Below are positions 9,356 to 35,500 of a stretch of DNA of 64,000 bases, in pieces. Below the pieces are notes generated by a model, which saw only the letters and a list, made by a program, of their open reading frames with translations, had not been told where the DNA came from and ran no database searches. Each line of letters begins with the position of its first letter. Within the stretch, counting starts at the first letter, position 1. Position numbers and translations under genes: made by a program. The DNA comes from an uncultured Clostridia bacterium. Lineage in GTDB: Bacteria; Acidobacteriota; Aminicenantia; UBA2199. Location: assembly GCA_964465065.1 (NCBI GenBank), contig CAYXHZ010000006.1:1185-65184 (forward strand), given 5' to 3'.

Positions 9356-10251
9356 TGGACGGTCTGCTCATCGTCGACAAGCCGCCGGGCATGACCTCGC
9401 ACGACGTGGTCAACCGCATCCGCAGGCTCCTGGGCATCAAACGGGTCGGCCATTTCGGCACCCTGGACCCCATGGCCACCGGCGTACTGCTGCTGGCGGT
9501 CGGCAAGGCCACGCGCCTGTTCGATTACTACCGGGACCGCGTCAAGATCTACGAGGGCATGGCCCAATTGGGCTGGAGCACCGACAGCTACGACGCCACC
9601 GGGAAAATGGTCGGAGAAAAAACTCCGGTCGATCTGAAAAAAATGAAACTCCAGGAGGTGATCGCTCGCTTTCTGGGACAATTTTCCCAGACCCCGCCCG
9701 TCTTTTCCGCCAAAAAGAAAGACGGCAAGCCTCTCTACCACTACGCACGCCAGAACATCCCGGTCGAATTGAAAAGCGCCGAGGTGACCATATACGAACT
9801 GAACTGGCGAATCGAGGGTCCGGACCGCTTCTGGTTCTCGGCCAGCACCTCTTCGGGCACCTACATCCGCTCCCTGATTCACGACATCGGCCAGGCGCTC
9901 GGTTGCGGCGGACATCTGGCCGAGCTGCGGCGAACAGCCATCGGCGAGTTCACCCTGCAGCGAGCCCTGCCCCTGGACCAGCTGACGGGACCCGCCGAAG
10001 CGGGGCAGCTTTCGCAGGCCTGGGAACCGATCGAGAGCCTGCTGCCGGAATGGTCCAAGCTGATCCTGTCCGAAACGGGGGCCAAATTGGCCCGCAACGG
10101 CAATTCCATCCCCCTGTCGGCTGTCGAGCTGCTGACTCCCGGTACCCAGAGCGACCGCTTCCGCATCTTCGACCAGTACGGAACCCTGATCGGCCTGGGC
10201 GCCAAGGAATTCGAGACCAAGAGCATCAAACCCTTCCTGGTTCTGGCCTGA
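9352..10251 (+). CDS. truB: tRNA pseudouridine(55) synthase TruB
   Basis: Starts [51 protein letters not shown], with the catalytic Asp in GTLDP. A C-terminal PUA-like region follows. ATGA overlap with the nrnA stop. Confidence 0.9.
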   Translation: [299 protein letters not shown]

Positions 10252-10300
10252 AGCGTGCGCCGTTCCTCTATCCCAAGTCTGTCGGGAACACGGTCGGGTT

Positions 10301-11128
10301 TTATCGTTTGGCGCTCCGACTTGCCAACAAAATGAACGCCGGCGTCAATCCCAGAACGGCGGTGAAGATCCACAGAGGCAGCATGGTCCAGGCATCGGCC
10401 AGTCGGGCTTTCAGGGCAAACGGCGTGTATGCGATCAAGATGAAGCTGTAAAACCCGCACACCAGACCCATCACGACTCCCAGGACATAGCCCCGCCCCT
10501 CCCCTTTCAAAAGCCAGACTGCCGCCAGGACCTGAGGAACCGCCAGCACCAGCAGATCGAAGGTGGATATCACCGCCACCCCCTCCATATCCAGGGTTCC
10601 GGTCATGAGAAACTGTACCCAGCGCCCGCCCCACAGAAACACGAAGACCAGCGCGAAGGCCAGCAGCATGGCGGCCACCGTGATCGCGCTGCGTTTTCCG
10701 GGGATGTGTTTCCGGTACTTTTTGAGATTCATGCCCAGCATTGCGAATATGAAAGAATACATGGAGACGCCCAGAATCAGGACGTACAGGAGAAAGTAGT
10801 CGTTGTACGCCACGCCCAGCGGGTAATAAATATAATCATAGGTGATCAGCGCCTGAACGCCCAGCCAGAAAACCTGGCCCTTATCCGTACCGCGCCGCAG
10901 CATAACGAGCGCGACGATCAGCAGCGGAACGAAAAGGAACAGGTTTACCAGGTCGTTGCCCCGGAAAACCGCTCGGCCCCAGGTGTTGTCACGGGCGTAG
11001 GTACCGGGCACAAACATTCCGACCGCCGCCTGCACGGTCATCGCCAGCAGGCTGATCTGTGAAAGAATCATCGGCGTCCGCAGCGACTTTTCCGGAGTTT
11101 TTTCGTCGATAAAATCTCGTTTTGTCAT
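10301..11128 (-). CDS. Polytopic inner-membrane protein, function unknown
   Basis: Start chosen at MTKRDFIDEK... (ATG at 11128) with a GGAGG-like SD. About 7 predicted TM helices and no recognisable catalytic motif. Confidence 0.5.
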   Translation of the reverse strand: MTKRDFIDEKTPEKSLRTPMILSQISLLAMTVQAAVGMFVPGTYARDNTWGRAVFRGNDLVNLFLFVPLLIVALVMLRRGTDKGQVFWLGVQALITYDYIYYPLGVAYNDYFLLYVLILGVSMYSFIFAMLGMNLKKYRKHIPGKRSAITVAAMLLAFALVFVFLWGGRWVQFLMTGTLDMEGVAVISTFDLLVLAVPQVLAAVWLLKGEGRGYVLGVVMGLVCGFYSFILIAYTPFALKARLADAWTMLPLWIFTAVLGLTPAFILLASRSAKR

Positions 11129-11284
11129 CCTGGCACCTCCCTTCTCGGACGATCTGTCACTGTTTATAGGACGATGGACAATAATATGCAAGAGGCAGTC
11201 CCGGTTTTTGGGAATGGTGATGGTTATCATGTGTACAGGCGCAGGCAGGCGTCCCCTATGCACCCTGGATCATGGAGATAATCA

Positions 11285-11427
11285 ATGAAAACAATCCGTA
11301 TGCGTTTCCTTTTTCTGACGATGGCGGTTTGGATCCTTCCTGTTCTTGCCGACGAGTTCCGCTACGTCATCAACACCCGCGACCACGGGGATCACATGGC
11401 CGGCAACGAGCTGGCGCCGAGCAGGTG
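11285..11427 (+). pseudogene. Short ORF resembling a degenerate MBL-fold (glyoxalase-II-like THHHxDHxGGN) hydrolase fragment
   Basis: Translation: MKTIRMRFLFLTMAVWILPVLADEFRYVINTRDHGDHMAGNELAPSR*. The VINT-RDHGDH-MAGNEL segment resembles the LLNTHHHADHTGGNLEL Zn-binding block with His->Arg/Asp substitutions. It lies in an AT-rich intergenic stretch. Confidence 0.25.
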
Positions 11428-11626
11428 ATTGCCGCCGATCTGCGAACAGGGTCGTGATGGTGGCAAAGACCGCGGGTGGTGAAATCCCGTCTGAATGAAC
11501 CGGCAAAGAATGAGTAAAAGTACTCAAAGAGGCGTTCGTTTTCTTTGAATCCGCATGGGTATAACCACAAGGCAATAATTCAAAAAACACCGATAATAAA
11601 AGATATACAGTCTCTTCATGTTTGAA

Positions 11627-11666
11627 ATTACAATGTAAAACCCGTGACACTGTTCTGTATTGCAAT
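11627..11666. repeat. Imperfect inverted repeat (ATTaCAATgtAaAACC-N8-tGTTCTGTATTGCAAT), a degenerate copy of the perfect palindrome at 35461..35500
   Basis: The right arm tgttctgtattgcaat shares a 15-mer with the 35.48 kb element; the left arm matches its reverse complement at about 11 of 16 positions. It lies roughly 75 bp upstream of the 11744 start codon. Confidence 0.4.
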
Positions 11667-11743
11667 ATGACGCCGAAAAAAAAGGAGATTTGTTCTAGGC
11701 TGTGAAGGCGAGGGCGGATCAAAGCCTCAAACAGGAGAACAAA

Positions 11744-14371
11744 ATGAGTAAAAGAAATAGGATTGTCGGGATGCTGATTCTGATGCTCGGGCTGACAGGA
11801 ACCGTCCGGGCTGTTGAAAAAGCCCCAATCCGGGCCGAACGGCTCCAGGATCCAGTAACCGTCGATGGACGGCTCGAGGAGTCGTCCTGGCAGCGACAGG
11901 GTTACTGCGAGTTCTGGCAGCGGGAGCCGGACGAAGGCAAACCGGCCAGCGAAAGGAGCGAGGTGTGGCTGGCCTACGATGATGATGCCCTCTATGTGGC
12001 CGCCCGCTTGAGCGATTCTCAGCCCGAACTCGTGTCCGGGCTGCTGGGGCGGCGAGATACGGAATTAGACTGCGACTGGTTCACCGTCTATCTCGATCCC
12101 TATCTGGACAAACTCAGCGGCTTTGCCTTCGGCATCACTCCGGCGGGATCGGTCAGCGATCGCGCCTTGTATAACGATGTCGGATGGAACAGTCTATGGG
12201 ATGGCATCTGGAACGGCAAGGCCCAGCGGGACCGCCAGGGCTGGACGGTGGAGATGCGCATTCCCTTCAACCAGCTCCGCTTTTCCAAAAAGGATGGGGA
12301 ATATCGCTGGGGAGTTCATTTCCGGCGCATCGTCATGCGCAAGAATGAAGTGTCCGATTCGGCGCCCATACCCCGGACCGGCAATAACATGGTATCCCTG
12401 TTCAAGGAAATGGTGGGCATCGAAGGCATCGCCCCGCGACCGTTGATCATGGTCAGTCCCTACCTGGTGGGAAAAGGGGAATTCCTCGCCGGAGAGGTGG
12501 ATCAGGCGACGGGGAATCTGGGGCTGGACGCCAAGATCGGCCTTCGGAGCAACCTGACTCTCGACCTGTGTGTCAACCCCGATTTCGGCCAGGTGGAGGT
12601 GGATCCGGCCAGCATCAACCTCAGCGCCGCCGAGACCTACTATCAGGAAAGACGTCCCTTCTTCATAGAGGGTGCGGATCTGTTTACCAATTTCAGCTTC
12701 TGTGGTGGGAATCACCCCAGTGCTGGCTGGAACAACCCCCGATTCTTCTACAGCCGTCGCATCGGCCGACCACCGCAGGGTTCCGTTTCTCAGTCCGGTC
12801 AGATCGATATGCCGGAATGGGCGACGATTCTGAGCGCGGCCAAACTGACCGGCACCCTGGGGAACGGATGGAAGATCGGGGCCATCTACGGACTGACCGA
12901 GCGGGAGTTCGCCGCAGTCGATGATCTGGGCCAGGAGTTCGAGGTGGAGGTCGAGCCGCTGACCCATTACGCCGTACTGCGCACCCAGAAGGAATTCAAC
13001 CAGGGGCGGCAGGGTCTGGGCTTCCTGGGCACCCTGGTGGCCCGGGATTTTGCGGATGATTCCCTGCGAGGGGCTCTCAATTCCGATTCCTGGATGGTGG
13101 GGTTCGATGGCTGGGCGTTCTTCGGTCCGCAGAAGAATTGGGTTTTGAGTGGATGGTTCAGTTCCAGCCGGGTCAACGGTTCGGCCCAGCGCATCACCTC
13201 CTTGCAGCAAGAATTCCCCCATTACTACCAACGTCCCGACATGAGTCATGTGAACCTGGATACTGGTTTGACCCATTTGGATGGCTGGGTCGGCAGAATT
13301 GAAGTCAACAAGGAAAAAGGGAATTTAAGATTCAATGCGGGACTGGGTGCCGTGTCTCCGGGTTACGATATCCGGGACGGCGGGTATCATACGAGCGCGG
13401 ATGTCATCAACGGGCATGTGCTGGTCGGGTGGCAGGATTTTACTGTGGGGAAGGTGATACGCAAATGGAACATCGATCTGTGGCATCAGCGCAACTACAA
13501 TTTCGCCGGGGACAAGATCGGCGAACAGCGTGTCATTGTCGCGGCCAATGCCCAATTCCTGAACTACTGGTCCTGCAATTTTATGACCAGTTACAATCCC
13601 GGTCATTTTTCCCAGACCGCGACCCGAGGCGGACCGTTGATGAAGATACCATCCTATCAATGGTATAATTTTACCATCAGCAGCGACAGCCGCAAACGGC
13701 TGGTCGGCTCCCTGTCCGGTTATGTGAACCAGAGCAGCAACGGGTCATCGGAAAACACTTTCTCCCTGTCTCTCAGTCTGAAACCCAGCAGCCGGTTCAG
13801 TCTGTCCATCAGCCCGGCTTACAGCTCTATCAATGAACGGGCCCAATACGTGACCCAGGTCAATGATCCGACGATGACGGCCACCTACGGCAAGCGGTAC
13901 GTTTTCTCTGCTTTGGATTTGAAGGAACTCTCCTGTTCCATGCGCATCAACTGGATCTTCACGCCCCAGCTCAGTCTGCAGGGATATATCCAGCCTTTTC
14001 TTTCGGTGGGTCATTACCGGGATTTCGCCGAACTGGCTGAGCCGTCGAGCGATCGATTCAGGCCATTCGGACACGATGGCTCCACCATCGAAGCGGAAAA
14101 CGGGTCGTTTGGGGTCGATCCCGACGGCAGCGGGCCGGCCGCTCCTTTCCGGTTCAACAATCCCGATTTCAACCTCAAATCGCTGCGAGGCACTCTGGTC
14201 CTGCGCTGGGAGTACCTTCCGGGATCGAGCCTGTATTTCGTCTGGACGCAGAATCGGGCCGACTATGCCAACCCCGGCGATTTCCGTTTCGGCCGTGACC
14301 TGGGCGATCTGTTCTCCGCCCGGGGAGACAATGTCTTCATGGTAAAACTGACCCACGGTTTCAATCTGTAG
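11744..14371 (+). CDS. Large exported DUF5916 / CBM9-like (family-9 carbohydrate-binding-like) domain protein
   Basis: ATG at 11744 with an AGGAG SD 7 nt upstream. Signal peptide MSKRNRIVGMLILMLGLTGTVRA. The N-terminal region (..WLAYDDDALYVAARL..DWFTVYLDPY..) is typical of DUF5916/CBM9-like proteins, and the C-terminal 600 aa is beta-rich. Confidence 0.6.
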   Translation: MSKRNRIVGMLILMLGLTGTVRAVEKAPIRAERLQDPVTVDGRLEESSWQRQGYCEFWQREPDEGKPASERSEVWLAYDDDALYVAARLSDSQPELVSGLLGRRDTELDCDWFTVYLDPYLDKLSGFAFGITPAGSVSDRALYNDVGWNSLWDGIWNGKAQRDRQGWTVEMRIPFNQLRFSKKDGEYRWGVHFRRIVMRKNEVSDSAPIPRTGNNMVSLFKEMVGIEGIAPRPLIMVSPYLVGKGEFLAGEVDQATGNLGLDAKIGLRSNLTLDLCVNPDFGQVEVDPASINLSAAETYYQERRPFFIEGADLFTNFSFCGGNHPSAGWNNPRFFYSRRIGRPPQGSVSQSGQIDMPEWATILSAAKLTGTLGNGWKIGAIYGLTEREFAAVDDLGQEFEVEVEPLTHYAVLRTQKEFNQGRQGLGFLGTLVARDFADDSLRGALNSDSWMVGFDGWAFFGPQKNWVLSGWFSSSRVNGSAQRITSLQQEFPHYYQRPDMSHVNLDTGLTHLDGWVGRIEVNKEKGNLRFNAGLGAVSPGYDIRDGGYHTSADVINGHVLVGWQDFTVGKVIRKWNIDLWHQRNYNFAGDKIGEQRVIVAANAQFLNYWSCNFMTSYNPGHFSQTATRGGPLMKIPSYQWYNFTISSDSRKRLVGSLSGYVNQSSNGSSENTFSLSLSLKPSSRFSLSISPAYSSINERAQYVTQVNDPTMTATYGKRYVFSALDLKELSCSMRINWIFTPQLSLQGYIQPFLSVGHYRDFAELAEPSSDRFRPFGHDGSTIEAENGSFGVDPDGSGPAAPFRFNNPDFNLKSLRGTLVLRWEYLPGSSLYFVWTQNRADYANPGDFRFGRDLGDLFSARGDNVFMVKLTHGFNL

Positions 14372-14400
14372 GGGACGAAAACCTTGACGGCAGCGGACAC

Positions 14401-14790
14401 ATGGCCGATTTCTTCAAACAGCTCAACGGTCAGGACGGGAGTTATTAGCGTCAGAGCCATGGCGGACGGGGCTATGTCTTTCAGGATCGCTACAAATCAT
14501 ACCTGATCCAGGATGAGGCCTACCTGATGCTCTGCCTGGCCTATGTGCTCAACAACCCGGTCAAGGCCGGAATATGCAAGGGATTCGAGAACTATCGCTG
14601 GTCCAGTGCCCAGTCCTACTTTTCAGATGAACCCCCAGAATGGCTGGACACGACGTTTATCGAAGAACTCTTCGGAGATGCCGATGCTTTGATGCGCTTC
14701 GTGGATGCGCAGGCCGAACTGGATCCGTTCGCCGATCTCAGCGTCAACAGCCTGGGGGTCATGTACCATCGGGCCCGCCGGAAAGGGTAA
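14401..14790 (+). pseudogene. 3' remnant of an IS200/IS605-family HUH (RayT / REP-associated tyrosine transposase-like) transposase, with an in-frame TAG
   Basis: Frame-1 translation: MADFFKQLNGQDGSY*RQSHGGRGYVFQDRYKSYLIQDEAYLMLCLAYVLNNPVKAGICKGFENYRWSS.... This matches the C-terminal third of Y1/RayT transposases (..WQ.RY....I.......YI..NPV.AGLV....YPWSS). The HUH-containing N-terminal half is absent because the DUF5916 stop abuts it at 14371. Confidence 0.65.
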
Positions 14791-14823
14791 CGGTGGGCGA
14801 CAATGTAAAGAAGTACAGCACTG

Positions 14824-15468
14824 TCACCCCCGCCTCCGTGTTCGCCACATGTAGACAGACACCAGAATGCCGATTACGGGGTAGGTAATACCAACCGTTG
14901 AACTGATCAAGAAGAGAGGCTGAATAATCAGGGCGGCAAACACAAAAGGCGCCGCGCAACCATGGATCAGCATCATGATTCTGATCGTTTTTATAATCCC
15001 GCGGCCTTTGATGGCCAAGGCCATGAACAATGTCGAAAGGCCCATCAAGGTATACGCCAGGCCATTGACAGCATAAAAAGGTTTACCTGCCGCCATTTCA
15101 AAGATCGAAACGCTTTGAAAGGTATTGTTTAAAAAAGAGGGGGCAATTATCATCACCTGTACAACATACACGACTGAATTCAAGGTGGCGTAAATGACGG
15201 CCAACGCCACTGCGAACGAGAACAATATTTTCACTTTGTTTATTTCATCGCGATAGAGAGACAAGGTCATTCCCAGGAATGAATAGGCCAACAGCAGCGA
15301 TGGTCCGTACCATGAAAGCGAAATCCAGAACTGCGATTCCATGACTCCTGTCAATCCCAAAACCGCTGCGACATCAAACATGATGTAAAAAAGAGATGAT
15401 AAAATCGCCGTGATAAAGCCGAACATTTTTGCAGTGCGGAATTCCTGATCTGAAAACATGTCACTCAT
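14824..15468 (-). CDS. Polytopic membrane protein encoded in a low-GC islet, function unknown
   Basis: 214 aa with about 6 TM helices. The local GC is clearly lower than the flanks (AT-rich codons, many Ile/Phe/Lys/Asn). Confidence 0.55.
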   Translation of the reverse strand: MSDMFSDQEFRTAKMFGFITAILSSLFYIMFDVAAVLGLTGVMESQFWISLSWYGPSLLLAYSFLGMTLSLYRDEINKVKILFSFAVALAVIYATLNSVVYVVQVMIIAPSFLNNTFQSVSIFEMAAGKPFYAVNGLAYTLMGLSTLFMALAIKGRGIIKTIRIMMLIHGCAAPFVFAALIIQPLFLISSTVGITYPVIGILVSVYMWRTRRRG

Positions 15469-15760
15469 TCGCTCCTCCTTTTGAGTGTTCCAAATGTCTT
15501 CAATGCGCTGTTAGGCCAGAAATGTTTCATTTTATACGGTCTGATCGAAAAAAGTTTGTTTTAATTCCCAATATAGCCATGATGATAAAGAAAGACACCG
15601 TGATTAAACCACAGATCATACATATCACGCCATCGGAACATATACGGAGACGAGCGTTCAATGTTCCAGACAGGTAATCCGATACGCTGATTGTTATAGG
15701 ACAGTGAAAACAATAAAGCAAGAAGATGACTCGGCAATTCGTCCGGTCGCGGCAGAAATT

Positions 15761-16414
15761 TCAGTAGTAGATCGTCACCCGGAAGGAACCGGAATTGTCG
15801 CCGAAGTCGAAATCGTTGATGCCGATGAACAGGCGCCCGGCACGGCTCATGCGGATCGGCGCCCGGTTGTTGCCCACGTAGAACGGCGGACCATCCTCGG
15901 CCACCCGGGCGATGACGGCCCCGGTCGGCTGTGTCGGCATGGTCTTGTCCTTGTGCCAGTTGAGATTGAGCTCACCGTCCTGGAAAACCGAATTCTTGTC
16001 GTCGATGAAGATCGATCCGCTGCAGGAGAACATGATCTCCTGGCCGGTCTGCACCGTCAGACCGGTGTCGATCCATTGTTGACCGGCCTGGAGATCGACG
16101 CTGAGCGACCGTTTTTTTCGGCGCAGTTTCTGATACTTCTGCTCCACATCGTAGGCGGATTGAATGATTTGCGGGGCTGCCGAGGTGAACTCGATCTTCC
16201 ATACCTTGCCGATCGGTATCCTCAATGTATGACTTTCCGCCTGCCCCTGTTTGAAGACATTGAAAAAAATCGTCTCGTAGCGCAGATCGACCATCTTGCC
16301 GATATACTGAGTGCCATCGGTCGTATACAGGACATGATGCTCGGCAACCAGCGCCCGGGGCCAAGCCCAGATCAAGCCCAAAAACAAACCCAGCCAAGCC
16401 AGCCGTTTACTCAT
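15761..16414 (-). CDS. Secreted protein with a C-terminal PA-IL (LecA)-like lectin domain
   Basis: Start at MSKRLAWLGLFLGLIWAWPRALVA (signal peptide). The C-terminus ..GAVIARVAEDGPPFYVGNN..RLFIGINDFDFGDNSGSFRVTIYY resembles P. aeruginosa LecA (..[38 protein letters not shown]). Start overlaps the stop of the DapF-like gene by 8 nt. Confidence 0.5.
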   Translation of the reverse strand: MSKRLAWLGLFLGLIWAWPRALVAEHHVLYTTDGTQYIGKMVDLRYETIFFNVFKQGQAESHTLRIPIGKVWKIEFTSAAPQIIQSAYDVEQKYQKLRRKKRSLSVDLQAGQQWIDTGLTVQTGQEIMFSCSGSIFIDDKNSVFQDGELNLNWHKDKTMPTQPTGAVIARVAEDGPPFYVGNNRAPIRMSRAGRLFIGINDFDFGDNSGSFRVTIYY

Positions 16415-17243
16415 CGCCAGACTCCAGATATTCTCCCTTATAAACGATCCGGGTACGGTTTTCAATAAAGATGCGGTCGCAACCGGATATTTTTATTTTT
16501 TCCCCGCTCGGCGGCAAGAAAACCAGCTCGCTCAAACCTGGTTCGAGAGCCCGGAGCACCGCGTAGGCGCCGGCCGTTCCGGTGGACGAGGACAGGGTCG
16601 CTCCGACGCCGCGCTCGTAAAAGCGGATGCCGACCCCGTCGTCGCCCCGGTCGGTGATGATCGACACGTTGGTGCGCTGCGGAAAGATCGGTTGGCGGTG
16701 CAGTTCTTCGGCCAAGGCCAGCGCCTCGGCCGTCGATTGTCCGGCTGCCTGAAAGAAAACGACCTGCGGGTTGCCGACGGCGACCGGGTAGAAACGGAGG
16801 GAACGGTGATAAAACCCGTCACGCCAGCGCCGCTGCGGGTCGGCATTGAGAAAAGGGAAAAATCGGCTGTCGGCGAAATCCGGAAGCCCCAGATCGATCC
16901 GCAGACGGTAGCCGTTGTCCCGGCTGTCCAGCAGGCGGTGGCGATAGAGGTCGCGAATCCCGGCCAGCTCGATGGTATCGCCGTTCGCACCCAGATGGCA
17001 CAAGAGCGCGCTCAGACCGGCCATACCGTTGCCGGACAGTTCGGCCTCCAGGCCATCCTGGTTGAAAATGCGGAAAGAAACCGGCCGAACGGACCGGTCG
17101 TAAACGACCAGCCCGTCCGCGCCCGCACCGTAGTGACGGTCGCACCAGCGCCGCACCTGCGTCGGCGAAGGTGGCCCGCTCAGCTCGGCGGCATCGACCT
17201 GTAAAAAGTCGTTACCGCCGCTGCAGCTCTTGTAAAAAACCAT
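16407..17243 (-). CDS. Diaminopimelate-epimerase (DapF) family protein with both catalytic cysteines replaced (Cys73->Ser, second Cys absent)
   Basis: MVFYKSCSGGNDFLQVD (GNDF motif). FRIFNQDGLEAELSGNGMAG aligns to E. coli YRIFNADGSEVAQC73GNGARC. FYERGVGATLSSSTGTAGAYAV aligns to [21 protein letters not shown] with no Cys at all. ATG at 17243 overlaps the degP TGA (TGATG). Confidence 0.7.
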   Translation of the reverse strand: MVFYKSCSGGNDFLQVDAAELSGPPSPTQVRRWCDRHYGAGADGLVVYDRSVRPVSFRIFNQDGLEAELSGNGMAGLSALLCHLGANGDTIELAGIRDLYRHRLLDSRDNGYRLRIDLGLPDFADSRFFPFLNADPQRRWRDGFYHRSLRFYPVAVGNPQVVFFQAAGQSTAEALALAEELHRQPIFPQRTNVSIITDRGDDGVGIRFYERGVGATLSSSTGTAGAYAVLRALEPGLSELVFLPPSGEKIKISGCDRIFIENRTRIVYKGEYLESGDE

Positions 17244-18712
17244 CACTCTTCGGGAATGGTGAACGGAATGACCTGCTCGTTGCCCTGGCGGTTGATGTAG
17301 AGGTAAACGCCGTCACCCGGTGAACGCCGGCCCATGAGCTCGCGGAACTGTTTGACCGATCTCAGTTCGGTCCGGCCGACGGCGATGATGACGTCGTTGG
17401 GCCGCAAACCCTGCTGATGCGCCGCACCGCCGCGCACCACCTGGTCGACGACGACGCCCTCGTCGGTCTTGAGCTTGCGGCGCGAGGCCTCGGCGGCGTT
17501 GTTGTCCACCAGCACCATGCCCAGATCGATGAGCCCGCCGTCTTCCCCTTCGGCCTGGATGGTCTCCGATTCCGGAGCCTCGCCGACGATGACCGTGAAC
17601 GAGATGGGCTTGCCGTCACGCACAACGCCGACCGCCAGCTTTTCTCCCGGTTTGAGTTCGGCCACTTTGATGCTCAGCAGGCGGGATTCCTTGATCGGTT
17701 CTCCGCCCAGCGAAGTGATCAGATCGAGCTTCTTGAGGCCCGCCTTCTCGGCCGGTGAACCTTTCTCGACCGAGCGGATCAGGATACCGGGCTGACCGAT
17801 ATCGAACTTCTTGGCTCTTTCCTCGTCCATTTCCTCGATTTCCACACCCAGCCAACCGCGGATGACGCGGCCGCCCTTCTTGAGGTCCGCCACGACCCGT
17901 CTGGCCAGATTGGAGGTGATGGCGAAACCCAGGCCGATGCTGCCGCCGCTGTTGGAAACGATGACCGAGTTGATACCGATGACCTGGCCCTGCATGTTGA
18001 TCAGCGGACCGCCGGAATTGCCCTGGTTGATGGCGGCGTCGGTCTGGATGAAATCCTGGTACTGCAGACCGGACTGACGCAGCCCTTCCATGTAACGGCC
18101 CTTGGCGGAAATGATGCCGCTGGTGACGGTCAGATCCTGGTAGAGAGGGTTGCCGATGGCCAGAACCCATTCCCCGACCTCGGCCTTGTCGGCGTCGCCC
18201 ATTTCCAGGTAGGGGTGATCGCCACCCTCGATCTTGAGCAGGGCCAGATCGGTCTTGGAATCCTCGCCGATCTTCTTGGCCTTGTATTTCTTCTTGTCGA
18301 TGGTCTCGATGGTGATGCTGATGGCGTCCTTGACCACGTGATGATTGGTAATGATGTAGCCGTCGGCGGAAATGAAGAAGCCCGAACCCAAACCTTCGAC
18401 GGGTTGACGTCGCTGCGGCTGCATGTTGAAGAAGCGGTCGAAGATGTCATCGCCGAAAGGGGACTGGCTCCTTTCGGAAATGATCTGCGTCGACACCTTG
18501 ACCACGGCCGGCCGCACTTTGCGTACGATCGGGGCGAAGCCCATACCCTGGGCCGGATTGTTGTCGGTGGCCGCCAGGACCGGAGTCGCTGTCAATCCCA
18601 AAACCTCGGCGGGAGGATTATCCGTCGCATCCCGGTTCAGAAAACCCGTGAAGGCCAGAGTGGACAGGCCGACCAGGAATCCCAGCAAACTGGCTAAAAC
18701 AACTTTTTTCAT
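17243..18712 (-). CDS. degP: Periplasmic serine endoprotease DegP/HtrA (trypsin-like domain plus two PDZ domains)
   Basis: Signal peptide MKKVVLASLLGFLVGLSTLA. Catalytic motifs NHHVV, DLALLK and GNSGGPLINMQGQVIGINS. Two PDZ-like C-terminal regions. AGGAGG SD 6 nt upstream of the ATG at 18712. Confidence 0.9.
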   Translation of the reverse strand: MKKVVLASLLGFLVGLSTLAFTGFLNRDATDNPPAEVLGLTATPVLAATDNNPAQGMGFAPIVRKVRPAVVKVSTQIISERSQSPFGDDIFDRFFNMQPQRRQPVEGLGSGFFISADGYIITNHHVVKDAISITIETIDKKKYKAKKIGEDSKTDLALLKIEGGDHPYLEMGDADKAEVGEWVLAIGNPLYQDLTVTSGIISAKGRYMEGLRQSGLQYQDFIQTDAAINQGNSGGPLINMQGQVIGINSVIVSNSGGSIGLGFAITSNLARRVVADLKKGGRVIRGWLGVEIEEMDEERAKKFDIGQPGILIRSVEKGSPAEKAGLKKLDLITSLGGEPIKESRLLSIKVAELKPGEKLAVGVVRDGKPISFTVIVGEAPESETIQAEGEDGGLIDLGMVLVDNNAAEASRRKLKTDEGVVVDQVVRGGAAHQQGLRPNDVIIAVGRTELRSVKQFRELMGRRSPGDGVYLYINRQGNEQVIPFTIPEE

Positions 18713-18760
18713 GTGCATCCTCCTTTGTATAGATAGTCTATCGGTATTCGATTACTATCA

Positions 18761-18790
18761 GACGCTCTGTCAACCCATCGGGTTTCACGA
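18761..18790 (-). promoter_or_regulatory. ECF (sigmaW/sigmaE-type) promoter candidate tGAAAC-N17-CGTCTGA upstream of degP
   Basis: Minus-strand reading: gtGAAACccgatgggttgacagagCGTCTGAtag, about 45 nt upstream of the degP ATG. Compare B. subtilis sigmaW TGAAAC-N16-CGTA and E. coli sigmaE -10 TCTGA. Confidence 0.4.
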
Positions 18791-19000
18791 TTGATTTTAA
18801 CACGATTGGCGGCGGGACAGAATGCCGGACAGGCGGAAAAATATGCAGCCTCACGGCGGTTTTTTCCGCACCCGACCCGCACCGCCACCGTGCAGCGCCG
18901 TGCCCCGGAATGACGCCTGAGCCGGGTCCAGAGCCGTAAATGCGGACGGGCCGGACCGGACCGTCACGGTCTGCGCACATGGCAACGGAATTGCTGAACG

Positions 19001-35460: not shown

Positions 35461-35500
35461 ATTGCAATACAGAACCTTTCCGGGGTTCTGTATTGACAAT
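35461..35500. repeat. Near-perfect palindrome ATTGCAATACAGAACC-tttccgg-GGTTCTGTATTG(a)CAAT, with 12-bp perfect arms extendable to 16
   Basis: Seen directly in sequence, 54 bp downstream of the OMP gene stop and 64 bp upstream of the DUF4097 gene. The 15-mer GTTCTGTATTGCAAT recurs at 11651-11666. Confidence 0.45.

Follow-up and report, generated by a model that had tools for sequence, protein, structure and literature searches.

A probable decayed TIRtron downstream of a DUF5916 gene

Main finding

The segment at approximately 14371-14831 of the window (the entire 64-kb stretch of DNA that was analysed) is very probably the decayed remnant of a TIRtron, with a gene for a TIRYT, a tyrosine transposase of TnpA-Y1 subclass 2.1. 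The 3' part of a tyrosine (Y1/HUH) transposase homologue is encoded at window positions 14377/14386-14790 of the forward strand, directly behind an intact DUF5916 gene. The evidence comprises the homology of this fragment to a family of longer proteins, three lesions that interrupt or shorten it, a degenerate terminal inverted repeat (TIR) at its right end with a probable vestige of one at its left, and the architecture of its intact relatives. Feature coordinates are collected in Table 1.

Table 1. Positions of the remnant, its internal features and its immediate neighbours in the window
Feature	Position	Strand	Basis
Intact DUF5916 gene, left neighbour	11702/11744-14371	+	Pfam DUF5916, E 5.8e-64
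TAG stop codon of the DUF5916 gene	14369..14371	+	ORF list
GGGGACG, 7 nt, probably left over from the outer end of the left repeat	14371..14377	+	Family consensus GGGGACGGTGC
Pseudogene remnant, very probably of a TIRYT-type Y1 transposase	14378..14790	+	Family alignment, BLASTP, NCBIfam
In-frame TAG nonsense codon in place of a conserved Tyr/Phe codon (family ..YYRQ/..YFRK)	14446..14448	+	
W motif region YVFQ, retained; FQ variant typical of subclass 2.1	14473..14484	+	Motif definition in PMC6006769
Annotated 87-aa ORF (P0001)	14527..14790	+	100% identical public record entry
Tyrosine motif AYVLNNP, retained; class-2 signature Y---NP	14539..14559	+	PMC6006769, published RAYT/TIRYT alignment
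WSS motif, retained; conserved SS of the proximal tail	14599..14607	+	
Junction of the internal in-frame deletion (between 14721 and 14722), ..AQAEL/DPFADL..	14719..14724	+	Family alignment, second HSP
Hairpin, GGTGGGCGACAATG paired with the core of the right TIR	14792..14831	-	Minus-strand fold
Degenerate right TIR; + strand AATGTAAAGAAGTACAGCACTGTCACCCCC	14801..14831	-	TIR HMM

Homology of the remnant to Y1 transposases

The frame of the remnant opens at 14374, +2 relative to the DUF5916 frame, and closes at the stop codon at 14788-14790. Its translation reads DENLDGSGHMADFFKQLNGQDGSY, a stop, RQSHGGRGYVFQDRYKS and, further on, AYVLNNPVKAG, YRWSS and a terminal RKG. By the database scores, the similarity of this fragment to Y1 transposases is far above chance. 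Fragment residues 13-77 match positions 83-146 of the 146-position NCBIfam profile NF047646 (REP_Tyr_transpos) with 37 bits and an E value of 2.2e-9, and a search of 5.8 billion proteins returned PF01797 proteins at E values of 7e-28 and 1.5e-21. In tblastn, proteins P0003 and P0002 matched a single locus in the window (E 1e-28 and 9e-31). The initial annotation had proposed a 3' remnant of a Y1/HUH transposase of the RayT branch, and the match to the C-terminal half of the REP_Tyr_transpos profile, together with the PF01797 homologues, supports that reading; the protein and tblastn E values exclude the chance resemblance it had allowed for.

The remnant is 55-64% identical to PF01797 proteins of ~300 aa from Aminicenantes/Acidobacteriota metagenomes. 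In BLASTP against this family, fragment residues 5-117 align to residues 66-178 of the ~300-aa proteins (64% identity to P0045), and a second collinear HSP pairs fragment residues 114-137 with family residues ~271-296, the last ~24 residues. In family numbering, the pseudogene covers residues ~64-178 and continues directly with ~272-296, the native stop codon included. The fragment had no Y1_Tnp match in a Pfam scan, because only the second half of that domain survives. Intact relatives score above the PF01797 cut-off, and the predicted structure of one matches 4ER8, ISDra2 and IS608, in line with the Y1 superfamily. Mean identity between the remnant and the family is 51%, compared to 54% among live members, and the GC3 of the remnant, 0.69, is host-like.

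The motifs of the relatives are NHYH, YVFQ (FQ), YVLNNP (Y---NP) and WSS, of which the last three are kept in the window. The catalytic tyrosine codon at 14542-14544 aligns with the catalytic tyrosine marked in the published RAYT/TIRYT alignment. The tyrosine of DRYKS was considered as the catalytic residue and rejected, because published alignments place the catalytic tyrosine at the Y of AYVLNNP.

Lesions and decay

At its 5' end the remnant has lost ~220 bp, the HUH motif included. Homology begins at codon ~64, just past the position of the HUH motif (NHYH in relatives); the motif was not found in the window, nor is it encoded in another frame upstream. The HUH half is missing, as the initial annotation had stated, and the window copy is therefore a pseudogene rather than a functional member of the Y1 superfamily. 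The in-frame TAG that had also been reported lies where the family has a conserved tyrosine or phenylalanine. That TAG truly means stop in this genome follows from the DUF5916 gene, which itself ends with TAG where its homologues end: its C-terminus, FMVKLTHGFNL, stops at the same residue as in 16 homologues.

The third lesion is an internal in-frame deletion of ~94 codons (~282 bp), which takes out most of the C-terminal helical domain. The ~94 residues, with invariant positions among them, are present at this point in 23 of the 23 aligned family members and none of them in the window. Relatives have the residues L-D in common at both flanks of the deletion, which suggests that it arose between short direct repeats. 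This deletion, the right TIR past the stop codon and the probable left vestige had all been missed in the initial annotation.

The surviving conserved residues are all intact: of the 43 covered, correctly aligned family columns with a conservation of 90% or more, 43 are kept in the remnant. This indicates that the decay is recent. The codons that survive match live family members in their degree of conservation, which points to a recent inactivation as well. The lengths are also in balance, as the 461 bp kept, together with the losses of ~220 and ~282 bp, give ~963 bp, compared to 971-1010 bp in intact units.

Ends of the element and neighbouring genes

Only 2 nt separate the end of the DUF5916 gene from the start of the remnant frame. 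The earlier claim that the frame starts one codon after the DUF5916 stop stands in that the two abut, but the frame is shifted relative to that of DUF5916. The deletion boundary proposed at this position also holds. The heptamer GGGGACG sits exactly between the stop and the first homologous codon, its first G being the last G of the DUF5916 TAG. It occurs three times on the + strand of the 64 kb, or ~1e-3 for that 15-nt interval, and DUF5916 relatives lack it behind their stop codon. Though just 7 nt in length, it is probably a vestige of the left TIR.

At the other end, we searched the window with a TIR HMM whose input was 10 arms from 5 intact elements. The top match on either strand is the right repeat, in the expected orientation (7.5 bits, E 0.57 for 128 kb). 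Its core, GCACTGTCACCCCC, differs from the consensus, GCACCGTCCCC, by one substitution and a 1-2-nt insertion, and the repeat begins 13 nt past the stop codon, as in the relatives at loci L010 and L020.

The hairpin that includes the right-repeat core folds at -21.6 kcal/mol (z = -3.1; 2 of 200 shuffles fold equally well) and overlaps the TGA stop (14824-14826) of a convergent membrane-protein gene, for which it could be a putative terminator. With a window-wide E value of 0.57 and an indel in the core, the right-repeat match is weak by itself, and the stretch could simply be the terminator hairpin of that gene. A low-GC islet had been noted immediately downstream. The low GC content is confirmed (0.40-0.46 at ~14.8-15.76 kb, compared to 0.55-0.62 in neighbouring genes), but the islet is outside the element: it is a complete membrane-protein gene of ~214 aa on the reverse strand, with homologues elsewhere.

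Three separate lesions and a degenerate right TIR are unlike the product of a chimeric join, and we consider it very unlikely that assembly or binning created the junction artificially, by joining the end of a DUF5916 contig to a fragment of a transposase-bearing repeat. The source does look like a metagenome-assembled contig, and in two assemblies the contigs of a relative, P0002, break off at one and the same codon, a sign that assemblers break near here. Nonetheless, the GC and GC3 of the remnant match those of the neighbouring genes, the window holds no second copy that could seed a mis-join, and the contig runs on for tens of kb on either side.

Genomic comparisons were also used to look for the history of the site. 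They yielded no conspecific genome that has either an intact copy or an empty site, and a search of genome contigs with DUF5916 returned only two relatives, at 33-37% identity. Synteny is not conserved around the closest DUF5916 relatives (62-64% identity), and the indel is therefore not definable by comparison. Metagenome scans with the membrane protein and with a 234-aa neighbour, as well as a scan of viral contigs with the family alignment, found nothing, and the window has no Rfam matches at the gathering threshold.

Intact relatives and classification of the family

Intact relatives of the remnant carry their genes between TIRs. In all seven independent relatives examined, the end sequence GGGGACGGT(G/T)C is conserved, either as such or as a variant. 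Repeats of 25-44 nt lie directly on both sides of the gene at six independent loci (L006, L009, L010, L011, L012 and L015), and the right repeat is present at the seventh, L020. The 10-mer GGGACGGTGC occurs in exactly two copies in each of five loci, L006-L010, which represent three distinct elements, and is absent from loci without the transposase gene. Where this TIR core was found, it lies at the two ends of the gene and nowhere else in the locus. The end GGGGACGGTGC is kept across proteins that are only ~45-60% identical, which argues for recognition of these ends by the protein.

The family resembles the TIRtrons and their TIRYTs (Di Nocera, De Gregorio & Rocco 2013, BMC Genomics 14:522; PMC3733652) in having a single Y1/HUH gene between TIRs unrelated to REPs, an apparently low copy number and hosts in Acidobacteria-related lineages. 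The outer motif of the relatives' TIRs, GGGGACGG, agrees with the published TIR consensus, GGGGWSAS, at 7 of 8 positions, with G where the consensus has A; that motif is shared by only "some" TIRs (PMC3733652). At the level of protein sequence, similarity to the long TIRYTs is strong. A profile of the family scores gbm2474 at 130 bits, dau2153 at 126 and pca3049 at 120 (the long TIRYTs span 84-130), compared to 35-41 bits for short Acidobacteria TIRYTs and 16 bits for E. coli RayT. For the window fragment, the scores are 47 bits to gbm2474 and 4.8 bits to RayT. There are differences: the published long TIRYTs have 216-238 aa, whereas the relatives described here have ~300 aa, with an extra C-terminal helical module of ~90 aa, and originate in uncultured Aminicenantes/Acidobacteriota-type metagenomes; the copy in the window is a non-functional fragment. 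The conserved C-terminal extension of the relatives spans ~160 aa, of which the last ~75 are a predicted helical bundle.

In the classification of Quentin, Siguier, Chandler & Fichant (2018, BMC Genomics 19:475; PMC6006769), TnpA-Y1 subclass 2.1, which is equivalent to Bertels' RAYT Group 1, has the key motifs NH[YF]H, FQ, Y---NP and SS (Table 1 of that paper) and is not associated with REPs. The relatives share with it NH[YF]H (as NHYH), the FQ form of the W motif, Y---NP and SS, together with a long C-terminal extension, the lack of REPs and an apparently low intragenomic copy number. They differ in the consensus around the tyrosine (YIELNP or Y[IV]HLNP in subclass 2.1, YVLNNP here) and in length, the median of the subclass being 238 aa (PMC6006769). 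The C-terminal similarity of subclass 2.1 to Bac_DnaA_C, HTH_23 or HTH_28 has no Pfam counterpart in the relatives: no HTH-type C-terminal domain matched in Pfam at E<=1, and the profile found no DnaA match among PDB sequences.

A canonical REP-associated RayT (a REPtron), which the initial annotation had tied to REP palindromes and in particular to one at 35.48 kb, is a highly improbable source of the remnant. The best NCBIfam model for the fragment is REP_Tyr_transpos, and JGI annotates the relatives as "REP element-mobilizing transposase RayT". The structural evidence points the same way: a sequence-only PDB search gave marginal matches only, but in a fold search with the AlphaFold model of an intact relative (pLDDT 84) the best PDB match was E. 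coli TnpA-REP (4ER8; E 1.7e-6, TM 0.65 on target). E. coli RayT and the present family share the Y1 HUH fold and the class-2 Y---NP motif, and both are single-copy, non-IS-like genes. However, the intact relatives score 56-71 bits against REP_Tyr_transpos, below its curated equivalog cut-off of 80 bits, and the family profile separates E. coli RayT from the long TIRYTs by the scores given above. E. coli RayT has ~165 aa and lies between multi-copy REP hairpins with a GTAG tag, whereas the genes for the ~300-aa proteins here lie between non-palindromic TIRs; neither hairpins nor repeated palindromes were found around the intact relatives or the remnant. The palindrome at 35.48 kb is a single-copy hairpin (35465-35495), 21 kb away, and the 64-kb window contains no REP-like family of palindromes. 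The lack of REPs in the published work on subclass 2.1 also stands against this reading.

A classical IS200/IS605 element, multi-copy and with subterminal hairpins, with or without tnpB, is barely credible. The intact relatives do match Pfam PF01797, "Transposase IS200 like" (27-43 bits, cut-off 23), the next fold matches after 4ER8 are the ISDra2 and IS608 transposases, and the IS200/IS605 TnpA proteins (IS608, ISDra2) have the PF01797 superfamily and the HUH and tyrosine fold in common with the family. Against this, the NCBIfam model NF033573 (transpos_IS200) gives the relatives 16.5 bits, far below its cut-off of 55; their tyrosine motif is the class-2 Y---NP and not Y---Q; and at ~300 aa they are about twice the length of IS200 transposases (~150 aa). 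Subterminal hairpins, high copy number and frequent tnpB, all features of IS200/IS605, were not seen: the ends are TIRs, no tnpB is adjacent to the relatives, and identical relative proteins recur across samples only in the same genomic context, so that no multi-copy signal emerged. In the window, neither a second copy nor a solo TIR was found. By profile scores and TIRs, then, the family belongs with the TIR-associated TIRYTs and TIRtrons of subclass 2.1, and the label of IS200/IS605 or RayT given at the outset needs correction, the family being neither a classical IS200/IS605 element nor a REP-flanked RayT.

The annotated 87-aa ORF

The 87-aa ORF is the longest ATG-started ORF inside the remnant; it is not an independent gene, and its annotation is an artefact. 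Its protein cluster is a singleton, and among 5.8 billion protein clusters no family of short, C-terminal-only homologues was found; the homologues are either ~300 aa long or cut by contig ends. The possibility raised earlier, that it might be a conserved small gene in its own right, falls with these results.

That this ORF, or the TAG-interrupted frame, encodes a functional domesticated small protein kept by selection has next to no probability, although every surviving conserved residue is intact with one stop in 139 codons, GAGG lies ~9 nt upstream of the ATG at 14527 and the public record carries the ORF as a CDS: besides the absence of short homologues, the ORF begins mid-helix in the core domain and lacks both the HUH motif and the strands from which the fold is built, no promoter-like site was found in 14000-16600, and intact residues are equally expected if inactivation was recent (approximately one point change in 417 nt).

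A possible site-specific break after the HUH motif

The 3' piece in the window starts at AAAAC (14378), and in an unrelated element (loci L015-L019) a duplicated 5' piece ends in CTGGTTTTGG. To within 1 nt, the two breakpoints coincide at the phosphodiester that links codons 63 and 64, with the right half kept in the window element and the left half in the other. It is conceivable, though doubtful, that the 5' loss reflects a recurrent, site-specific break right after the HUH motif and not a random deletion. The cut might be made by the Y1 enzyme of the element itself, or else by a hairpin nuclease with the local GTTTT-GG-AAAAC quasi-palindrome as its target. If such breaks occur, TIRtrons would be cut internally, yielding mobile or dead half-elements. 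A conserved DNA-level site at the HUH-proximal breakpoint was considered and rejected, because the family shows no DNA conservation at that point.

Proposed history and implications

The decayed TIRtron would have begun as a compact unit of ~0.97-1.0 kb, with one ~300-aa TIRYT gene and TIRs of 25-44 nt whose outer ends read GGGGACGGTGC. It would have sat in the short spacer between the convergent genes for DUF5916 (+) and the 214-aa membrane protein (-). A deletion of ~220 bp between approximately position 7 of the left repeat and codon ~63 would have taken with it the promoter/5'UTR as well as the start codon and the HUH motif; a TAY-to-TAG change would have introduced the nonsense codon; an in-frame deletion of ~282 bp would have reduced the C-terminal helical domain; and small changes would have accumulated in the right repeat. 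We infer the order and mechanism of these deletions, and likewise the biochemical activity of intact TIRYTs.

Having no HUH motif, start codon or intact C-terminal domain, the remnant is incapable of producing an active enzyme. What is left is inert DNA, ordinary genomic debris whose right-end hairpin is at most a putative terminator, and no phenotype is expected from it. The locus matters mainly for annotation. A RayT or IS200 label given to it should not be read as a sign of REPs or of an active IS in this genome, and the public record should flag its 87-aa "hypothetical protein" as a pseudogene fragment. The intact relatives bring two modest gains. A large, well-conserved branch of ~300-aa TIRYTs exists in uncultured Aminicenantes/Acidobacteriota-type bacteria, and its GGGGACGGTGC ends are a defined substrate on which the biochemistry of TIRYTs, so far missing, could be worked out.

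Remnant of a TIRYT gene downstream of DUF5916

The DNA between the DUF5916 gene and the convergent membrane-protein gene is a pseudogene, left by the recent decay of an element of an already described type, a TIRtron (a gene for a Y1/HUH tyrosine transposase homologue, or TIRYT, of TnpA-Y1 subclass 2.1, flanked by terminal inverted repeats, TIRs), from a poorly sampled lineage. The C-terminus of the DUF5916 protein (..FMVKLTHGFNL, stop) ends in the alignment at the identical position to those of 16 homologues (..FMIKLSHSFNL, stop), and the gene is therefore complete. The reading frame quoted in the initial annotation, DENLDGSGHMADFFKQLNGQDGSY-stop-RQSHGGRGYVFQDRYKSYLIQDEAYLMLCLAYVLNNPVKAGICKGFENYRWSS...SLGVMYHRARRKG-stop, is present but is not that of DUF5916: it starts in another frame, at 14374, two bases past the DUF5916 stop.

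The resemblance to transposases proved to be more than chance. The NCBIfam profile NF047646 (REP-associated tyrosine transposase) matches fragment residues 13-77 over profile positions 83-146 of 146 (E 2.2e-9), a span corresponding precisely to the core domain's C-terminal half. Searched against 5.8 billion protein clusters, the fragment matched PF01797 proteins at E 7e-28 and 1.5e-21, and tblastn of these two proteins on the window returned the remnant locus as sole match (E 1e-28 and 9e-31). A Pfam scan gave no Y1_Tnp match to the fragment because only ~55 of 121 model positions are left; full-length relatives score 27-43 bits against a cut-off of 23 bits. The annotated 87-aa ORF within the remnant (P0001, 14527-14790) forms a singleton protein cluster, which argues against a conserved independent small gene, and is a gene-calling artefact.

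A chimeric full-length query gathered 563 relatives, nearly all of them 295-310 aa long, with PF01797 and from metagenomes; the few that are named belong to 'Candidatus Aminicenantes', 'Acidobacteriota' or 'WOR-3'. Two collinear stretches of the fragment match the relatives: residues 5-117 match their residues 66-178 (64% identity to the intact relative P0045), and residues 114-137 match their residues ~271-296 (58-65% identity). A multiple alignment of the family confirmed that the HUH half is missing: homology starts right behind the HUH motif (family ..NHYHLVLEN/SSGRMSDFFKQLNG..), and ~63 codons and everything upstream of them are absent. The in-frame TAG noted earlier sits on a conserved Tyr/Phe codon and is obtainable from TAY by one base change. 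A further ~94 residues that are found in every relative, invariant positions included, are gone between ..VDAQAEL and DPFADLSVNSLG.., while the tail and stop codon are native.

All 43 correctly aligned, still-covered family columns of at least 90% conservation are unchanged in the remnant, and its mean identity to the family is 51%, versus 54% for live members; the surviving codons are therefore undrifted, and inactivation was recent relative to the divergence of the family. The single point lesion in 417 nt fits recent inactivation. Lacking a promoter, start codon, HUH motif and most of the C-terminal domain, and carrying a stop codon, the window copy cannot be active.

Coordinates of features in the window and of TIR arms at three loci of intact relatives
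Feature	Position	Strand	Remarks
DUF5916 gene stop, TAG	14369-14371	+	Pfam DUF5916 E 5.8e-64
GGGGACG heptamer	14371-14377		last G of DUF5916 stop and next six bases
Remnant in-frame TAG	14446-14448	+	
Internal deletion junction	14721/14722	+	reading frame kept across gap
Remnant terminal stop	14788-14790	+	
Hairpin	14792-14831	-	-21.6 kcal/mol, z = -3.1; overlaps stop of convergent gene
Membrane-protein gene (214 aa, multi-pass), complete	14824-15468	-	
L006 TIR arms	9960-9990 and 10900-10930		
L009 TIR arms	9721-9757 and 10693-10730		
L010 TIR arms	9956-9999 and 10894-10936		

Intact relatives and their class

In six independent loci of the remnant's relatives (L006, L009, L010, L011, L012 and L015) the strongest inverted repeat consists of arms of 25-44 nt that directly bracket the gene. 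The outer ends are conserved although the proteins are only ~45-60% identical: most loci have GGGGACGGTGC, L012 has GGGGGACGGTTC, L015 retains only CGGTGC, and a seventh element, L020, shares the right end (..AAAGCACCGTCCCC). Each locus with the 10-mer GGGACGGTGC (L006-L010) has exactly two copies of it, and loci lacking the gene have none. No flanking hairpins, tnpB or conserved neighbours were found at the intact loci, and no relatives were found on viral contigs; identical proteins from different samples always share the same genomic context. Tandem TTGAYTTC repeats lie just upstream of the gene in the inner, A/T-rich left TIR of L012 (4953-4988) and L015 (1775-1802), and a TTGACA hexamer occupies the same place in the L010 TIR at 9956-9999; these could be promoter and/or protein-binding sites.

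The names 'TIRtrons' and 'TIRYTs' were coined for RayT-like genes flanked by TIRs and for their proteins, respectively, with a TIR consensus of GGGGWSAS (Di Nocera et al. 2013, PMC3733652), which the end of the present family, GGGGACGG, matches in 7 of 8 positions. Most TIRYTs fall in TnpA-Y1 subclass 2.1, Bertels' Group 1, which has the HuH motif NH[YF]H, an 'FQ' variant of the W motif, the Y motif Y---NP, a conserved SS, a long C-terminal extension, no REPs and low copy number (Quentin et al. 2018, PMC6006769). The corresponding motifs of the present family are NHYH, YVFQ, YVLNNP and WSS. When published sequences were rebuilt from the supplementary alignment and scored with the family profile, long TIRYTs gave 84-130 bits (gbm2474 130, dau2153 126, pca3049 120), the short Acidobacteria TIRYT group 35-41 bits and E. 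coli RayT 16 bits. By itself, the window fragment gave 47 bits to gbm2474 versus 4.8 bits to RayT. The main difference from published TIRYTs is length, 216-238 aa versus ~300 aa here, the family adding a helical C-terminal module that is unrecognised by Pfam.

The label of IS200/IS605 (RayT-like) transposase given in the initial annotation is thus right as to Y1 HUH kinship but not as to membership in transpos_IS200, for which intact relatives score 16.5 bits against a cut-off of 55. Four of them (P0010, P0012, P0045 and P0105) reach 56-71 bits with the NCBI REP_Tyr_transpos equivalog, under its 80-bit cut-off, and automated annotation is therefore a generic 'transposase' or no name. The ~300-aa branch is without a dedicated model. 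The predicted structure of P0045 (pLDDT 84) has E. coli TnpA-REP (4ER8) as its top match (E 1.7e-6), with the ISDra2 and IS608 transposases next; the protein accordingly has the Y1 HUH fold that was expected. In an intact TIRtron the Y1 enzyme would act on the conserved GGGGACGGTGC ends, with HUH binding metal, the Tyr of YVLNNP as nucleophile and the C-terminal helical domain perhaps binding DNA; this action is presumed from homology and from the co-conservation of the ends.

Ends and breakpoints of the window copy

The sequence AATGTAAAGAAGTACAGCACTGTCACCCCC (~14801-14831), 13 bases past the remnant's stop, can be aligned with the right arms of the relatives. Scanned over both strands of the whole window (128 kb), an HMM made from ten intact TIR arms has its best match precisely here, oriented as expected (E 0.57), with the core reading GCACTGTCACCCCC versus the consensus GCACCGTCCCC. 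A match at so narrow a prior location is good evidence for reading these bases as a degenerate right TIR. On the left, GGGGACG directly precedes AAAAC.., the codons for E64-N65. Only three instances of the heptamer exist on the window's + strand, and DUF5916 relatives lack it after their stop codons; the chance of its falling in this 15-nt gap is ~1e-3. The most economical reading is that it is the element's left end, still present. The 5' lesion would be an internal deletion of ~220 bp, spanning TIR position ~7 through codon ~63; the 461 bp retained and the missing ~220 and ~282 bp sum to ~963 bp, versus 971-1010 bp for intact units.

The unit would have sat in the spacer of two convergent genes. 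The left TIR of L010 similarly begins 2 nt past the stop of an upstream gene, and the TGA stop of the minus-strand neighbour (14824-14826) falls inside the right TIR core. This core pairs with GGTGGGCGACAATG, just past the remnant's stop, in a hairpin with a 13-bp stem that might be a co-opted terminator of the membrane-protein gene.

Loci L015-L019 carry a second, partial TIRtron copy 1.2 kb upstream of the full one (584-805 versus 1774-2025 in L015). It comprises the inner left TIR and codons 1-63, shares 98-100% identity with the full copy, has a 29-nt deletion in the 5'UTR, and ends exactly at ...CTGGTTTTGG, inter-codon position 63/64; the 217-aa ORF between the L015 copies is unrelated and without a Pfam match. 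The window remnant begins at AAAAC, the same bond within 1 nt, right behind HUH. The common breakpoint may be a coincidence, with a chance of ~3 in 970 per pair for a match that was noticed post hoc. That the site is fragile or cleaved seems improbable. The L015 DNA at 63/64 is a quasi-palindrome, GTTTT-GG-AAAAC, but DNA-level conservation of the site is absent in other family members. Position 1 of both L020 and L021 (ENA and JGI assemblies) is the Met70 codon of the same TIRYT gene, six codons further; this common start points to branching of the assembly graph a few codons past the HUH motif, for instance at a repeat boundary or a structural polymorphism.

Genomic surroundings

The closest DUF5916 relatives (L003, L004 and L005; 62-64% identity) lie in three gene neighbourhoods entirely different from window positions 10000-19000, and none of the three has dapF or htrA beside DUF5916 as in the window; the comparison of synteny that the initial annotation had proposed for defining the indel accordingly found no counterpart. 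No same-genus genome was found in the collections searched. The lineage is either poorly sampled or highly rearranged.

A low-GC islet had been placed immediately downstream of the remnant. It exists, with a GC of 0.46 in the membrane-protein gene and 0.41 in its upstream spacer (15469-15760), but lies outside the element and is a complete gene with homologues. Its GC3 is 0.57, versus 0.69-0.79 for neighbours, and that of the remnant is host-like (0.69). The protein has 160 homologous cluster representatives at E<=1e-3, of ~210-230 aa (best identities 61% and 46%), a C-terminus that is complete in full-length alignment, and no Pfam or NCBIfam family. Its own family is sparse and uncharacterised.

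The palindrome at 35.48 kb (35465-35495), CAATACAGAACC-N7-GGTTCTGTATTG, forms a strong hairpin (-22.7 kcal/mol, z = -5.8) and is single-copy within the window, and the 64 kb hold no REP-like repeat family and no further TIR copies. As subclass 2.1 has no association with REPs, the suggested tie between remnant and palindrome is unsupported. One palindrome arm and its flank share a 15-nt identity (GTTCTGTATTGCAAT) with 11652-11666, upstream of DUF5916; both sites are ~70-90 nt upstream of start codons, and the N-termini of both genes resemble signal peptides. With ~4 such 15-mer matches expected by chance in 64 kb, the identity may be meaningless, or it could be a common operator or promoter element.

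The finding is real yet ordinary, and its chief worth is correct annotation; a second gain is a defined, conserved TIR end that is usable for TIRYT biochemistry.
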